Part shown: one piece after another, positions 23,901 through 54,050 of the stretch
How positions within the stretch are numbered: the stretch's first letter is position 1
Layout of the letters: the number at the start of each line of letters is the position of its first letter
Source of the DNA: Sphyrna mokarran
Taxonomy: Eukaryota
Length of the DNA: 64,000 nt
Assembly: GCA_024679065.1 (NCBI GenBank)
Contig: JAGIQG010000010.1
Location: 51,212,001 to 51,276,000 of the forward strand
Reading direction: 5' to 3'
Notes under the pieces: generated by a model
Database searches by the model: none
What the model was told of the DNA's origin: nothing
What the model saw: the letters and a program-made list of their open reading frames with translations, nothing else
Position numbers and translations under genes: made by a program

Positions 23901-26900
23901 CCAAGTGAAAATAACCAAAAATACTAGCACAAATCCAAATGGCTTATGATAAATGAGCTTCATTATGTCAATGTCAATCAGCTTTGTTTCAGTACTAATC
24001 TCAGAGTTGTTCAAAGGTTCGAGGAAATTGTGCCACGCTGTGTAAGTTTGTAGTTGCATCATTATTTAAAAAGAACTGTTTTTGCTGGAAATGAACCAAA
24101 TGCTTTGGATGTATGAGTCTCCAGAAATTTTCAGGCCAGTTTTAATTTCCACAGAAACGATAGTTGTTCGTATTAGTTACAATTACTCTGGTGTGGTAGG
24201 AAAAACCAGCTTATTAAAGACAAAGAATGACACAGAACAAAAGATCAAACCAAGTGAATAATCAAAATTATATGTTGGCTATTGTTTAATGTAATCATAA
24301 GTCACAGGCTCAATCAGATGATTGTAAAATTAGGATTAATCATAGCTGAATTGTGATATTAGATCCTATAGCACTGTACTGTTAGAAGCAACAAAAACGT
24401 AACTCAGTCATCAAAATAGCTAATAATAGCTAAAAACAAAATAAGGATGAAAAAGTTATGGATGAAATTTTGATGCATACAGCATTTGTTCCAACAATCA
24501 AAATATCTCTGAGCATGATCAACACATTTCTACTTTAGATCTGAAAATAATGGTGGCATTCTGTATGAACGTGAAAGTTTTTAAAAGCGCAATAATAATA
24601 TTAGTAATAATTTTAAAAACTTAAAACTCACAACCAAAAATAATTAATAATGCTGGCAAACATGCCTCAAGTTAATTACCTGATGGATGACATATATTGC
24701 ATACTGAAGCTGTTGGCGCTGCAAGAATGGATGAAGATAATACAGAAGATGGCGCAAATGTGTCTCCCTGTTTCGATGAGGAACAATGATTGCTGTTTTA
24801 TATTGAGCTTTGCAGTGTGGGGGAGTGTATCGTCCACCAACTTGAACATACGGATTTTTTCTTGCAATTTTGCTCATAACTGGAATTTTCTGAAAGCTGA
24901 TAGTCAGTGGTCCAACTGTAAATGTTGACAGCAGATCAGTCTAGTGTACATGCTTTAAATAATAGACATGAAAAAAATCCTCAATTATAGCAGAACAATA
25001 GTTCTCCTTGCATTTAAAACACAACAGTGGAAGAAAAAGTGAGGTCCAAAGTTGAAGGCCTAGCTAGTTTCAGGTCCTTCAAGATCTTTCAGCAGAATAA
25101 GTTTGACTGTAAACTAAATTTTTTAACTGCTATTTTCTGAATGCAGTGCTAGTTCAAAAGCTCACAAGGAAATTAGAGCAGCAGTAGTAGTATTGGAATA
25201 CCATGGCGAACAAGATAGCAAAACCAAAAACATGTTTACAGGTCAGCCAGCAGTTTGCCAGTACAAATATGTACCTCTACATCTAGTAAGATCATTTGCC
25301 ATAGTACCAAAGCTGTGTCACAGTTACAGATTTGCAACCACAGGCCATATATCAAATGAAAAAACATCAAGCAGAAACAGGAGTGGGATTTTACCGTCTT
25401 GTTTGGCCCGAAATCGTTAAAATCTCACCTGAAGTCAATGGACCTTTCCCTATTCCATCCCTTGCCCACTCCAATTCCTATGATGTGTGGGGCAGTACAA
25501 TTCCAGACTAAGTATTTCTTCATGAGGACAGAGAAACTCATTCCAATAAAAAACAAGTTTGACTGCTCTGCAAAAATGCAACACTCAATTCTTTTCAATC
25601 TAACACCAACAATGCCTGCCTGCACATCAAATACTTAAAAGTTTCAGAGCATTCTGGGACATTCTGGTGACAAACTATAAATGCAAATTAAGTTATATTT
25701 CTGAAAAGAAATACATGATGACATTTTTATCTTACACTCATCTGGACAACTACAGGAATGCCAAATTTTAAACAATCACAGCAATTTATACTATAGGAGC
25801 AAAGAGTGCTGACTAGCTACCAAGGCAACTCAGAATGAGAGAGACACTGCCACAAAGAAAGCAATGCAAACGCTTCTCCAAGCCCGCAAGCACCGGACAA
25901 GATTGAGAAGGTAGGACCTTCATGAATAACTTCAGTGGGTACGGGAATTGAACACCTGCTGTTGACATCGCTCTGTTTCACAAACTAGCTGTCTAGCCAA
26001 TTGAGCTAACTAACTCCCAGCAGTTCCAAATAGTAGAACAACCAGAGATCACTATTTTTGGAACTGTTAAAACTTTTTGGATACGTTACTGACTGTTGTA
26101 CGTATAAGCAACTCTAGATTCATATCTCTCGTCAAAAAAGTGAAATTCAACCTCAGAAGGGCCACAATTCAATTGATAGACGATTTGGTACCATAATTTG
26201 GGCACTGGAGAATCTGTAATATACCTGCCCAGATTTCTATTTCTAAATCAATGGAAAGGAGATCTGATGGAATGTAGAACAGGTGGATAATCGTCTATCA
26301 ATTGAATTGTGGCCCTTCTGAGGTTGAATTTCACTTTTTTGACGAGAGATATGAATCTAGAGTTGCTTATACGTACAACAGTCAGTAACGTATCCAAAAA
26401 GTTTTAACAGCTCCAAAAATAGTGATCTCTGGTTGTTCTACTATTTGGAACTGCTGGGAGTTAGTTAGCGTTTGAAACTGGAAGATACGTACATATGTTC
26501 TATAATACGTTGCCTTGCTCTGAAATGCACGTACAAAAGGTTAAAACTAGATAATTTATCATTTAGGAGAGTCAGCAACTATTCCATTAAAATAATTGTG
26601 CAATATAACTAACAATGCATCAATACATTCAGTATTCCAAAGCTGTTTCAAATTAAACATCCTATGATCGAGAAGCCAGGCCTTCAACTGAGTTCACTGA
26701 TTTTCCTACTTGTACTATCATTGGTAAACTTAACATCTTAGATAGGTAGAACAGCCAATCCCATGAAACTGATCACATATTGCAGTGCTTTAGAAAAACA
26801 TTTATATTCTCACTTTAGACTTCACGAAATTAAAATTCCAGCATTTCTTTGGTTTGTAAAGCTGTGCTGACTAATAATACTAAATGTAACTTTACTTGCA

Positions 26901-34837: not shown

Positions 34838-34980
34838 AAGCGCAATTCATCCCGGTAGCCGTCTACCTCACCACCGAGAGCAGTGAACGGAAAGCTCAAA
34901 CATGACACCCACCCCCACGCCGCCTGCTTTCCGCACTGCTGCCAGGGGCGGTTAGTACAGCGCGAGACGTTCCCGTCGCA

Positions 34981-35331
34981 GCGCGAGCCCCGCCCCCCCC
35001 ATAGCGCGAGCCCCGCCCCCCCCATAGCGCGAGCCCGCCCCCCCCTAGCGCGAGCCCGCCCCCATAGCGAGCCCCGCCCCCCCCATAGCGCGACGCCCCG
35101 CCCCCCCAATAGCGCGAGCCCCGCCCCCCCATAGCGCGAGCCCGCCCCCCCCCCTAGCGCGAGCCCCGCCCCCCCATAGCGCGAGCCCCGCCCCCCCCAT
35201 AGCGCGAGCCCCGCCCCCCCATAGCGCGAGCCCCGCCCCCCCATAGCGCGAGCCCCGCCCCCCCCATAGCGCGAGCCCGCCCCCCCATAGCGCGAGCCCC
35301 GCCCCCCCCCCGTAGCGCGAGCCCCGCCCCC
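34981..35331. repeat. GC-rich minisatellite, unit ~ATAGCGCGAGCCCCGCCCCCCC (about 20-25 bp), about 16 copies
   Basis: Tandem units directly visible; the C-run length varies between units. It accounts for the Gly/Pro-rich pseudo-ORFs at 34834-35468. Confidence 0.95.
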
Positions 35332-35594
35332 GACCCCACCTCAGCATGTGCCGCACCCTCCACATCGCGAGGCCCCCCCCCCCCCCCCACCCCCCCCATA
35401 GTATGCGCCGCTCTCCCAAAGCGTGAGCTCCTCCCCGGCAGCGGGGGGGCCACGCCCTCACAGAACACTGCCGTCCCTGCAGAGTGCAGGGCTCTTACCC
35501 TCCCCCCACATCTTATTGCCGCTCCCGCACAGCTCGAGCCCCATCCCTATAGCATGAACCACATCCTTACAGCACGAGTCTTTCCCCCCCCCAA

Positions 35595-36390
35595 CCTCTT
35601 GGGGTTTGTGGAAGAACTCCTGCAGCCTCAATCGCCTGATGAATTCCTTTGTGTCCCCTATGAGACCGAATGTGGTCCATTTCGGTGGTGAAGCAAAAAC
35701 TGAGCCCTCGGTTGAAAACTTCGACTTCATCTGGTTGAAGTTGACAATGGAATTCCCTGCCATGGTACACCTTTCTACTGTGGTGCTGGGGGAGGCTTGG
35801 TTGCTGATGGTGGTGATGCCGAGTTTCTAAAGTTTCTTGTTCCTGATGTGTTTGTGGACAATGTAGTTCCTTTGTCTCATCTGCTTGGCAGAGTTTCGCA
35901 GCTGGTCTGCGTCCTGAGTGCAAGTTGAGAATATGAATTCTATTTTGGCTTCCATGATGCGGTGTTTGCTGTACAACTGGCATATGAGGTGGTTGAGGAG
36001 TGTGAGAGAAGTGTGACGGCAGAGTCTCTCAGCATTGTCTGTGTTACAGGTTGACCTGAGTGGATTTGTGATCTGTAGTTCTTTTAATGTCTTGTTTGCT
36101 TTCATGCATCTTTGTAAAAACTTGATGTCTATGTCGATATGCACGATCTTCTTGGAGATCCTCTCCACTTGGAGCCAGCAGTTTGTGGTGTCGATGATAA
36201 TTGTGATCTGGAGATGCCAGCGTTGGACTGGGATAAACTGTTTGTGATCAGAACTACTCACTCATCTGATGAAGGGGCAAAGCCCTGAAAGCTAGTGGTG
36301 TTTGCTGCCAAATAAACCTGTTGGACTTTAACCTGGTGTTGTGAGACTTCTTACTGTGTTTACCTCAGTCCAACACCAGCATCTCCACAT
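35595..36390. mobile_element. Penelope-like element fragment: ORF N-terminal region on minus (35595-~36240) plus an inverted pLTR on plus (~36250-36390)
   Basis: Frameshifted peptide ...VERISKKIVHIDIDIKFLQRC...SIVN..QPDEVEVFNRGLSFC..TKEFIRRLRLQEFFHKPQE, resembling the N-terminus of Penelope-type ORFs. The pLTR tail GTCCAAC.CC.GCATCTCCA occurs in both orientations and is shared with the 48777 element. Confidence 0.75.
36262..36298 (+). ncRNA. Minimal type-I hammerhead ribozyme motif (core intact, weak stem I)
   Basis: TCAT-CTGATGA-A-GGGGC-AAA-GCCCT-GAAA-GC-TA-GTGG: CUGAUGA at 36266-36272, GAAA at 36287-36290, CUA triplet ending at 36294. Confidence 0.65.
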
Positions 36391-47245: not shown

Positions 47246-48864
47246 ATTTAGGAAAATTTATTTTAAAAATTTTATATAAACAGAAATGAAACATAAACCA
47301 GGCAGTATTTTACATCTTATTAAAGCCTTTGCTTCCCACTTCAATCGTGGATCATAGTGCAGACTGGGACTCGTAAGGTGGTTTTCTCTTGCTCGCAGTT
47401 TCACACCATTGTGAGGCAGTCCTTTGTGATCACCACCTCTGCTGTGACAAGGGTCTTTGGATCACTCCATAAATACAGCTTTCACTGCATGTGTCACCCA
47501 AATGTGATGTGGTTAAACTATCCCTGGCCCCTCCATGGCTGATGTAACATTGTATGTGATGTGATTAAATTAGTCCTGGGCATCAAATGTTATGTTTCAA
47601 ACAGAATCCACACAGCTTCTTGATAATATAATTAAGATCAGGAATTATTGAATTATAGAATGGTTACAGAGCAGAAGGAGGCCTTTCGGTCTATTTTGTC
47701 AGCTCTTTGCAACAGCAATTCACCTAATGTCTCCTACCTCACGTTTTCTTCACAGCGCTGAACTTTTTCTCTTCTCCAATTCCCTTTTGAAATCTATGAT
47801 TGAGTCTGCCTGTACTACACACTCAGGCATTGCATTCAAGATCCTAATTGCTCATGTCACCATTGCATCCTTTCCCAATCACCTTAAATTGATGTGCCAT
47901 ATTTCTTAATCCTTCTCTACCTATTCTGTCCAGATTCTTCATGATGTTGAATACCTCTGTCAAATCTCCATTTGATCATTTGCAATTTCACAAAGTTATG
48001 CTCAGGCTTGGTGGTTTTAAATGATGCTTTTACATCATAGACGAAAGAGCTTGTGAACAGTTCAGAGATACTTTCCATATCTCCCATTCTCAAGCACTTA
48101 TAGGCCACAAATGGCCTTAGTGATTAAGGCCACATCCGTAAGAGGCAAAGTTTTTAGCTCAAATTGTCACCATGCTGTGTTTTAATTCTCAAAGATGCAA
48201 GAAGTGCACATTCCCATTCACCCTTACTTTTAGCTCTTGACTTCGGGATTTTATGAAGGACAAACTTACATGGACACAAGGCTCTAGGCTTAACCACAAA
48301 TGTGTTCATTCATAAAAATATTCCTAATTTTCTAATACAAGAATTCTAAAATAGTGTAATGATGCTGTACAATGCTCAAAACCATGACTTATTAATAAAA
48401 ACCTCTACTGAAAAAAACCACAGGCAAAACCCCATGTTTCTGCCTCAGAGCTCATTCGGTTCAACTTTAGTTGCTACCCTTAAACTATCCTTAACCCTCA
48501 GCCCCAACATCTCTCAGATCTGACTGATATTTACAGCTTCCCCTCATGGTTGTCCATTCTGGCATGAGCTGCCGATCAACAAATCAGGTTCACCATTCCT
48601 GACTCTCCTTGGTGACTGCAGTCCTTCAGGCCACTATCACCACCGTATGACTGAAAACACTTAGGATCCCCAACATGTTCGGTCTTGTCTGGTGTTGAAA
48701 GTAGGTCTGAGTCAGGATGACCAGCCCTGATCCTCCTTCCAACTGCAGTGCAAGACACTGTGGCTTGACCTTTTTTGATGTAGAGATGCCGGCGTTGGAC
48801 TTGGGCAAACTTAGTAAAGTTTGACAACACCAATTTTAAATCCAACCGATGTATTTGATAGTAA

Positions 48865-48905
48865 ATCCACGAGCATTCGGCCTTTGTGGCCTTCGTCAGG
48901 CGAAT
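48865..48905 (-). ncRNA. Hammerhead motif copy in the inverted pLTR arm, core mutated (GAAA->GAAT)
   Basis: Reverse complement is identical to 49498-49538 except at position 48875. Confidence 0.6.
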
Positions 48906-49497
48906 GAGGTGTTCTGGTCTCCAAAAGCACACATATCAGCACAGACAGTTTACAGATTGCAGATTAGAATGCGAATCCTTACACCTAACCTGCTATTCAA
49001 GTCTTAAAGTGGCTAATAGCAGAGGTTAGAGAAATGTGTATTGTCTCCAGACAGCACAGTAAGTGAGGTTTTTTGCTAACCCAGGCAAGTCATGGGAGTT
49101 ACAGATAGTGTGACATGAAGCCAAGATCCCTGTTAAGACTGTCCTCATGTGTGTGGAACTTGGCTATCAGTCTCTGCTCAGCGACTCTGCACTGTCGTGT
49201 CTCGTGAAGGCCCAAGTTCTACTTGGGCTTTTGTGATAGCCAAGTTCCACACACATGAGGACGATCTTAACTGGGATCTTGGCTTCATGTCACACTATCT
49301 GTAACTCCCATGACTTGCCTGGGTTAGCAAAAAACCTCACTTACTGTGCTGTCTGGAGACAATACACATTTCTCTAACCTCTGCTGGTAGCCATTTTAAG
49401 ACTTGAATAACAGGTTAGGTGTAAGGATTCGCATTCTGATCTGCAATCTGTAAACTGTCTGTGCTGATATGTGTGCTTTTGGAGACCAGAACACCTC

Positions 49498-49538
49498 ATT
49501 CGCCTGACGAAGGCCACAAAGGCCGAAAGCTCGTGGAT
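49498..49538 (+). ncRNA. Minimal type-I hammerhead ribozyme motif in a Penelope pLTR (intact core)
   Basis: ATTCGC-CTGACGA-A-GGCC-ACAAA-GGCC-GAAA-GC-TC-GTGGAT: both core boxes are present, stem II is 4 bp, stem III is the palindromic AGCT, the CUC cleavage triplet ends at 49532, and stem I is 6 bp with two G.U pairs. Confidence 0.75.
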
Positions 49539-49709
49539 TTACTATCAAATACATCGGTTGGATTTAAAATCGTTGTTGTCAAACTTTACTGAGTTGACCT
49601 TTTTTAGCAGAAAACATTAGCAAAATTATCAAAGCATATTTCCTGAAGGCACACTGTTTAGATGGTCAGTGCTTAGAACGTTTTTAATTTTTTAGCTTGG
49701 GTCCTGCTC

Positions 49710-49810
49710 CCACTTACCTGACAAAGAGGCAAATCCTAAAGCTAGTGGCATTTATTACCAAATAAACCTGTTAGACTTTAACCTGGTGTTGTGAAACCAC
49801 TTACTGTGTC
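49710..49810 (+). mobile_element. Degenerate solo Penelope pLTR fragment with a decayed hammerhead
   Basis: CTGACAA...TAAAGCTAGTGG...CCAAATAAACCTGTTAGACTTTAACCTGGTGTTGTGA aligns to 36266-36360; both core boxes are mutated. Confidence 0.7.
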
Positions 49811-52284: not shown

Positions 52285-54050
52285 CTAAAAGGGTCAGAGG
52301 GATAACCCAGGGAACTATAGGCCGCTGAGCTTGACTTCAGTTATAGGTAAGCTAATGGAGAGGATCCTGAGGGACAGGATGTGTGAGCATCTGGAGCGCT
52401 GCGATCTGATCAGGGATACGCAGCATGGCTTCGTTAAGGGGAGGTCGTGCCTTACGAATCTAGTGGAATTTTTTGAAGAGGTGACAAAAACGGTTGATGA
52501 AGGACAAGCCGTTGATGTCGTCTACATGGATTTCAGTAAGGCGTTTGACAAAGTTCCCATGGTAGGCTGATAAAAAGGTGAAGGCGCATGGGATACAGGG
52601 CCAGGTATGTAGATGGGTTGAGAACTGGCTTGGGAGGAGGAGACAGCGGGTATTAGTGGAAGGCTCTTTTTCCAACTGGAGGTCAGTCACTAGTGGTGTG
52701 CCACAGGGCTCAGTACTAGGACCTCTTCTATTTGTGATTTATATAAATGACTTGGAAGAGGGGGTAGGTGGTGTGATCAGCAAATTTGCTGATGACACTA
52801 AGATACTTGGATTGGCGGGGACTGAGGAGCAGTGCCAGGCAATACAACAGGACATAGATAGGCTGGTAGATTGGGCAGATAGATGGCAAATGGAATTTAA
52901 TCCGGATAAATGCGAGGTGATGCATTTTGGCCGGAATACTGTAGAGGGGAGTTATAGGATAAAAGGTAAAACTATCCGGAGTATAGAGACGCAGAGAGAC
53001 CTGGGGGTGCAGGTTCACAAGTCTCTGAAGGTGTCAGTACAGGTGGAAAAGGTGATAAAGAAAGCGTATGGTATGTTAGCCTTCATAGGAAGGGGTATAG
53101 AATACAAGAGTAGGAGTTTGATGTTGCAAGTGTATAGAACGTTGGTTAGGCCTCACTTGGAGTACTGCGTCCAGTTCTGGTCGCCGTACTACCGGAAGGA
53201 TGTGGAGTCCCTGGAGAGAGTGCAGAGGAGATTTACCAGGATGCTGCCTGGTATGGAAGGGCTGTCTTACGAGGAAAGGTTGAACATACTGGGGTTGTTT
53301 TCCCTTGAAAGACGTCGGCTGAGAGGGGATCTATTAGAGGTATATAAGATTATGAGGGGTATAGATAGAGTAAATGGTGGTAAGCTTTTTCCACCATTAG
53401 ATTCGGATAGAACGAGGGGTCACGGCCTTAGGGTGAGGGGGGCTATGTATAAGACTAATATTAGAGGGCATTTTTTCACACAAAGGGTAGTGGGGGTGTG
53501 GAATGCACTACCGAGTAAGGTGGTGGGAGCAGGCACGCTAGGGTTGTTTAAGGGTCTCTTGGACAGCCACATGAGCGGTCTGCAGATAGAGGGATATATG
53601 AGGACTGTTTAAATACTTTAATTGTTTCCACAGGCTATTTGGTCCACCTTGTTGACCAACAAGGTGCATGCATTCGGTAGGTCGTGCGAGGGCTGCTCCC
53701 GGAGGTTACTTCAGGAGTGGCCTAGTGCTTCACGTCGTTAGTGTACGCTTAAACTGGACCATCAGATGGGCAACATGACAGCTCAGAGACTATCGCTGTT
53801 GCTGTGCAGACACATGGATTTGGGCCTGTGTCTGCGGGAGTTTGCGCGTTCTCCCCGTGGTTGCGTGGGTTTTCTCCGGGTGCTCCGGTTTCCTCCCACA
53901 TCCCAAAAATGTGCTCTTAGGCTGATTGGGTAACAAATTGTCCCTATATTGGTCTCTATATGTCATTAAGACGTTAGGAAGACAGCGCGGGCTCGTTGGG
54001 CCGAAGGGCCTGTTTCCCGTGCTGTGTTGTTCTTTGTTCTTTGTTCTAAT
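52285..54050 (+). mobile_element. Young 5'-truncated CR1-clade LINE; RT nearly intact (one frameshift at ~52560), ORF ends at 53612
   Basis: NYRPLSLTS, QHGFVKGRSCLTNL, DFSKAFDKVP, GVPQGSVLGP, KFADDTK, RPHLEYCVQFWSP, RTRGH. The 3' tail is GGGCCGAAGGGCCTGTT..GTGCTG followed by (TTGTTCT)n. Confidence 0.93.

Follow-up and report, generated by a model that had tools for sequence, protein, structure and literature searches.

The 41 nt at positions 49498-49538 of the window, by which we mean the whole 64,000-nucleotide stretch of Sphyrna mokarran DNA that was analysed, carry an intact minimal type-I hammerhead ribozyme (min-HHR). It lies in a truncated relic of a Penelope-like element (PLE), likely of the Neptune clade. 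The reading that we favour with moderate confidence is that in active master elements this hammerhead cuts slowly and with help, that the cut frees the ORF message and the uncut RNA serves as the template, and that the relic itself is silent. Directly observed were the anatomy, the target-site duplication (TSD), the one-sided tail, the copy numbers, the covariation in stem II, the 94- or 100-nt gap to the start codon, and the extension of most copies past the cut site. A single motif of this kind matters little, since the published class to which it belongs has left tens of thousands of relics. It is the population that is of value: its many subfamilies offer natural variants of the stems, and its insertion ends, which number in the thousands, can be used to ask whether cut RNA is copied. 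The features of the window to which the text refers are as follows.

49498-49538, plus strand: min-HHR in the majority form of its own subfamily, with the predicted cut after C49532
49234-49593, plus strand: right arm of the insertion, made up of the final 26 codons of the ORF, from its GIY-YIG endonuclease part, with the stop codon ending at 49313, followed by the pseudo-LTR (pLTR) that holds the hammerhead; no tail
48777-49214, minus strand: left arm, with the 5'-truncated ORF end, the pLTR and a 31-nt tail (48777-48807)
48865-48905, minus strand: second hammerhead, in the inverted arm, its core broken by A15.1>U at 48875 (GAAA>GAAT)
49210-49228, no strand assigned: 8-bp hairpin palindrome at the head-to-head junction
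48765-48776, plus strand: left copy of the TSD, 12 bp
49594-49605, plus strand: right copy of the TSD, 12 bp
36260-36390, plus strand: end of the pLTR of a second PLE family, with its hammerhead and the tail, inverted relative to the ORF start of that element on the minus strand (about 36240 to 35567)
49710-49790, plus strand: remnant of the second family's pLTR with a decayed hammerhead (G8>A and loss of G12), beyond the TSD of the 817-nt insertion

The letters and coordinates of the hammerhead, as given in a first-pass annotation, were confirmed by a sequence check. We numbered the positions by the convention of PMC4209133; their assignment to these bases is our own. Stem I pairs 49498-49503 with 49533-49538 (A-U, U-A, U.G, C-G, G.U and C-G; 6 bp with two G.U pairs). 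C3-A9 correspond to 49504-49510, and an additional A follows A9 at 49511. Stem II has 4 bp (49512-49515 with 49521-49524, G10.1-C11.1 being G49512-C49524) and a 5-nt loop. G12-A15.1 are found at 49525-49528, the palindromic AGCU at 49528-49531 replaces helix III, and C17 is 49532. The core CUGANGA / GAAA / UH is complete, with C3-A9, G12-A15.1, U16.1 and C17 all present. In fold prediction, the isolated 41-mer adopts the drawn hammerhead with a probability of 0.99 for stem II and 0.59-0.94 for stem I. The letters, the coordinates and the isolated fold all agree with the annotated minimal type-I hammerhead and its CUC cut site, cleavage itself being a prediction.

The surrounding sequence changes this picture. 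The predicted probability of stem I dropped to 0.06-0.19 with 150-400 nt of context and to 0.0 in a read-through transcript spanning the whole inverted repeat. Minimum-energy co-folding of a hammerhead dimer gave a non-hammerhead duplex. We also looked for a same-strand hammerhead that could provide an intermolecular helix III, and there was none within the insertion (48777-49593). Truncated and enclosed in a 362-bp inverted repeat, the copy is predicted to lose stem I in read-through RNA, and its sole neighbour in the insertion is an antisense, mutated hammerhead; it is therefore probably inactive at its own locus. The earlier description 'potentially active' is thus apt for this type of sequence but not for the locus 49498-49538.

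The pLTR that holds the hammerhead is part of an 817-nt head-to-head PLE insertion (48777-49593), which is truncated at the 5' end and bordered by the 12-bp TSD. The inverted repeat measures 362 nt and its arms differ at 12 of these 362 positions. Neither arm (360 and 438 nt) retains any RT sequence. The tail of the left arm, 48777-48807, is the sequence found immediately upstream of the ORF start codon. The inverted pLTR, the one-sided tail and the TSD are all traits of insertions by endonuclease-bearing (EN+) PLEs. The first-pass annotation overlooked both the minus-strand hammerhead at 48865-48905 and the entire inverted insertion with its TSD. Its placement of the motif in a pLTR was right, as the hammerhead comes after the ORF stop and before the ORF start or the tail in family copies.

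Among 30 sampled loci, 9 had a head-to-head partner within 1.5 kb, a count in which the two arms of a single insertion may appear twice, and none (0/30) had a same-strand partner within that distance. In many head-to-head inserts of 100-250 nt, the turning point is stem I or the bases just before it, or else the palindromic stem III (loci L047/L048, L059/L060, L243, L251, L254, L264, L292 and L299). The window also holds a 181-nt inverted repeat at 26005-26469, a young fold-back element whose arms are 99% complementary, are separated by 103 nt and lack the hammerhead pattern.

The hammerhead near 36266 has the sequence described in the first-pass annotation and is part of another PLE family that is only distantly related to the first. 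Its exchanged stem II had been offered as covariation-style support. The inner swaps do agree with the genome-wide covariation reported below, but the comparison is between two distinct families, and the closing G.U pair is probably CpG decay because the GGGGCAAAGCCCC form occurs among the listed matches of the generic hammerhead pattern. A GC-rich minisatellite of 22-23-nt units (more than 20 units, window 34950-35550) adjoins the broken ORF of this second family. Elsewhere in the window, a 348-aa open frame with RVT_1 (E 8.5e-16) at 52566-53612 belongs to a LINE-type repeat, of which the window holds several decayed copies.

Within the window, the bare core pattern occurs at chance level, with 9 matches where 6.3 are expected, a count reached in 18 of 100 shuffles, and the covariance-model search that the first-pass annotation had proposed gave no Rfam hammerhead family at E<=5. 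The case for the hammerhead therefore rests on genome counts. An exact 30-mer of the hammerhead had 453 matches in the genome and 0 in the reversed control, and a generic hammerhead pattern had at least 31,142 matches against 105 in the control. Among the first matches listed, the two places that the pattern leaves unconstrained (15.2-16.2) were GC in 93 of 100, counted by eye. Anchors downstream of the motif numbered 17,478 for this family group and 7,256 for the group of the 36266 copy. A DNA search returned 4,928 candidates, and the 40 that were scored gave 44 matches with 93-100% identity. In RNA data, no run contained half of the sequence words. One run of uncertain kind gave 1,125 contigs of relatives, none across the stretch and with no starts or ends, which says nothing on expression or cutting. 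We noticed a further subfamily (L311, L314, L318, L322, L324 and L325) in which the spacer after the cut site is 2 nt longer and stem II is of the GAG/CTC type.

To which element the relic belongs can be judged from more complete copies. Locus L074 is a near-full-length copy of the family with a frameshifted ORF. The family ORF contains RVT_1 (E 4.5e-8), and in L030 and L074 alike a CX4CX2C linker separates RT from EN, while VY and YIG have two cysteines between them. A single ORF that combines RT with a C-terminal GIY-YIG endonuclease, with two Cys between its motifs, identifies an EN+ PLE. Pfam gave no match on the endonuclease piece, although relatives do carry PF01541, and a PDB sequence search with the RT part returned nothing below E 0.3. 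Among named proteins, those most similar to the family ORF come from sharks (67-84% identity), which bears out the annotated cartilaginous-fish host. In the available parts of PMC8557442, the CX2-5CxxC linker and the two cysteines serve as criteria and the linker is common to Neptune and Nematis, while a 2026 preprint (10.64898/2026.07.22.740005) names, in its available text, Neptune and Poseidon as the widespread PLE groups of vertebrates. Since the linker and Cys motifs indicate Neptune or Nematis and Neptune is among the widespread vertebrate groups, the element is likely a Neptune, a clade assignment made by motifs. Our initial assumption of a Poseidon host element was dropped on account of the linker.

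Next to these identities, we compared the conservation of the motif among copies. In 36 close copies, the motif showed 2.7% mismatch versus 1.6% in the remaining pLTR, mainly at CpG sites. The first-pass annotation had expected core nucleotides to be better conserved than the flanking pLTR if the ribozyme is real, and among close copies they formally are not. The motif here decays at the flank rate or faster, which points to inserted copies decaying without constraint. We rejected this comparison as a test of function since such copies decay neutrally and conservation is visible only between subfamilies.

For the comparison between subfamilies, 207 copies were collected by an anchor outside the motif, and 176 of them were parsed with at most 2 mismatches per box. 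Non-CpG core positions were 94-100% conserved in the parsed copies. The extra nucleotide between 9 and 10.1 was A in 171 of the 176, G10.1 was present in 164, and H17 was C, U or A in 169. N7 has four alleles. Stem II with its loop occurs in 21 recurrent haplotypes, and pairs 1-3 are paired in all of them. Watson-Crick pairs filled 47 of 63 cells in these haplotypes versus 37.8 after shuffling (1 of 5000 shuffles). We then aligned 19 of the 21 haplotypes with the two window copies, choosing rows with intact core boxes and using a shuffle that ignores relatedness; so defined, 90.4% of stem II cells were paired versus 83.9% in shuffles, and there were 17 two-sided changes versus 5.2 (0 of 500 shuffles), with slid controls paired at 24-41%.

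Stem I behaved differently. In the 176-copy analysis 91 of 114 cells were paired, versus 89.5 in shuffles (1281 of 5000), and in the 19-haplotype alignment 88% of cells were paired and two-sided pairs numbered 2. Several subfamilies carry U-U mismatches in this stem. The genome-wide covariation check suggested by the first-pass annotation thus supports stem II by compensatory changes, and for stem I it gives no excess over shuffles in the 176-copy analysis. A subfamily common among ORF-start copies (L093-L182) has a G10.1.U11.1 pair, G or U at N7, and U-U mismatches in stem I. These features suggest that the ribozyme had been weakened without stopping this lineage from spreading.

If cut RNA is copied, the 5' ends of genomic copies should pile up at +1, a prediction that we made beforehand. 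We collected 100 copies by a downstream anchor, and 91 of them extend across the cut site. Eight start at +1 to +5 (with one duplicate pair and one ambiguous case), none at +6 to +13 and none at -1 to -6. An enriched set of 5' starts was taken from the first 87 of 1,455 matches; 15 were removed by eye, leaving 72 rows, a script removed another 10, all as read-through copies or internal deletions, and the removal of one palindromic twin left 61 rows. Here, 1-3 copies start at +1 and 19-24 at +1 to +5, a flat distribution (p 0.59-0.94 versus a flat model). In the 36 well-assigned rows, 18-22 start at +1 to +5 (p 0.15 or 0.0085, depending on the calling rule). Perfect fold-backs escape both 5'-start filters. 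In one subfamily group, genome-wide counts with matched patterns found 19 copies starting at the cut and 17 starting three bases upstream of it. A sharp cleavage footprint is absent from the genomic copies. There may be a weak, smeared excess at +1 to +5, within the 3' strand of stem I, and it could equally come from RT stalling at the helix. By the matched count, cut RNA is copied rarely, in line with the in vitro result from Anolis.

How the hammerhead could act in the element follows from its fold and position. Since AGCU is unable to close stem III within one molecule, cutting would need an intermolecular AGCU/AGCU helix or the help of a protein, as published for other min-HHRs. The available text of PMC4209133 describes the min-HHR monomer as inactive and the activity of multimers as low, and in that of PMC11167929 the Anolis HHR cuts only with protein, HHR mutants still insert, and no reads end at the cut. 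We propose that in active masters the hammerhead would be helped by a second copy or by the element's protein and would cut slowly. Selection on the fold would act only in the few source (master) elements, and the inserted copies would decay.

The cut site lies 94-122 nt upstream of the ATG in 57 of 87 ORF-start copies, at 94 or 100 nt in nearly all of these. A cut at this place, just upstream of both the start codon and the RT start sites (ends with and without tail), would produce a unit-length 5'-OH message and lose the upstream template. The ORF message would in this way be freed from longer transcripts, with cut RNA going to translation or decay and uncut RNA being copied. Our literature search gave no direct support for a message-release role in PLEs, and the available part of PMC8557442 calls the role of PLE hammerheads unclear.

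A first alternative is that the fold is kept mainly uncut, as a structure, a protein-binding site, an RT stop or fold-back signal, or a transcription-start mark, with cleavage being marginal. We consider this unlikely. It fits the lack of a peak at the cut site in the matched count and the many tiny head-to-head inserts that reverse at the motif, and PMC4209133, in the parts available, allows non-cleaving roles. Starts also cluster 3-15 nt upstream of C3 (27 of 78 at-risk copies, or 2.7% per nt, whereas the rate 16-40 nt upstream does not exceed 1.3% per nt). However, this cluster is broad and takes both arms of an insertion as separate starts, and the palindrome nearby favours fold-back junctions through microhomology. 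A pure structure would also have no need for the catalytic G5, A6, G8, A9 and G12-A15.1 or for a cleavable UH, and these are kept, as seen above for H17.

Slightly less likely still is the model of Cervera and de la Pena, proposed in PMC4209133, in which the hammerhead cuts tandem transcripts into unit-length, possibly circularised RNAs that are the true templates. Circles re-join the cut site and would be compatible with the read-through copies. The near-full-length L074 begins about 5 nt after the cut, a 155-nt tandem unit begins 3-5 nt after it, and the 100-copy and 36-row samples both hold the weak excess at +1 to +5. On the other hand, neither the matched counts nor the 61 enriched rows have a peak at +1, and HHR mutants leave insertion in vitro unchanged (PMC11167929, in its available text). 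The 155-nt unit is itself without a ribozyme core and is still found in tandem at two loci.

We describe this unit here as a tiny non-autonomous PLE derivative. It consists of the pLTR after the cut site and the first ~60 nt of the ORF. The two loci hold 9 junctions: at L146:682-2130 (G000:C749) there are 7.6 tandem copies and an inverted part, and at L334:478-736 (G000:C1) about 1.7 copies bordered by what looks like a TSD of 11-12 bp.

That the copy at 49498-49538 is an active ribozyme useful to the host, domesticated like the amniote intronic hammerheads, is hardly credible: its 41 nt are intact while the twin arm has a core mutation, but its 30-mer is common to 453 copies, a divergence of ~2.5% (9 differences in 361 nt from the family majority) would leave the 41-mer intact by chance in at least one third of copies, and the motif lacks a stable stem III, with a long hairpin predicted to sequester it.

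Returning to slow, assisted cutting that releases the message and spares an uncut template, we may take it further, though we regard the extended form as doubtful. More than 30,000 min-HHR insertions might then be a fossil record of a catalytic core selected through at least 21 lineages, even though cut RNA would almost never be the template. One part of the transcript pool would be cut and serve as message, with a leader of 94-100 nt; the other part would stay uncut as the template, and its copying would tend to end or fold back at the 5' edge of the folded ribozyme. The ribozyme-free 155-nt units would still move and form tandems. If true, the genomic data would thereby explain the purpose of PLE hammerheads.

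The class is already known, as the first-pass annotation had stated. The available text of Cervera and de la Pena 2014 (PMC4209133) reports min-HHRs in Xena, Poseidon and Neptune PLEs of fishes. These share with ours the type I topology, the unpaired base between 9 and 10.1, G10.1-C11.1, the palindromic 15.2-16.2 and the missing loop 3. They likewise form many consensus families with compensatory changes, occur mostly as single motifs on truncated copies, and include opposite-strand pairs 100-700 bp apart. The counts, which were obtained by different search rules, are at least 31,142 here (strict pattern) versus 4,000 in coelacanth and 9,000 in Xenopus tropicalis. Stem II has 3-5 bp here versus 7-8 bp in Schistosoma. 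No shark is named in the text portions and supplements of PMC4209133 that were searched. Apart from the retrozymes in the preprint (Li et al. 2026, 10.64898/2026.07.22.740005), whose available text counts tandem ones in one chondrichthyan genome, we found no paper describing shark PLE hammerheads in a search with subscription journals and repeat databases outside its scope. Nor did we find a published description of this family, although further supplements of PMC4209133 or of the preprint may list chondrichthyan motifs. We are dealing with a known class in a family for which we found no description in the literature.

The animal non-LTR retrozymes of that preprint resemble our motif in having a type I HHR related to those of PLE pLTRs. 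In retrozymes, units that each contain an HHR follow one another in tandem on one strand, whereas here there is a single inverted pair. This, together with the lack of same-strand partners at all 30 sampled loci, speaks against a retrozyme identity. The insertion resembles the head-to-head inverted-pLTR insertions of EN+ PLEs (available parts of PMC3846280 and PMC8557442), with which it shares an inverted 5'-truncated copy, a one-sided tail, a TSD and a junction palindrome. It differs from them by its two very short arms without RT sequence.

The Poseidon element PAc of Anolis carolinensis (Frangieh et al. 2024, PMC11167929, available text) also has its HHR at the junction of pLTR and ORF. As here, two kinds of 3' end flank a 30-40-nt tail, and there is no sign of cut RNA as template. 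In PAc, however, the ORF begins inside stem II and the cut falls 26 nt after the start codon, whereas in the shark family the cut falls 94-100 nt before it and the protein has the zinc-finger linker of Neptune and Nematis.
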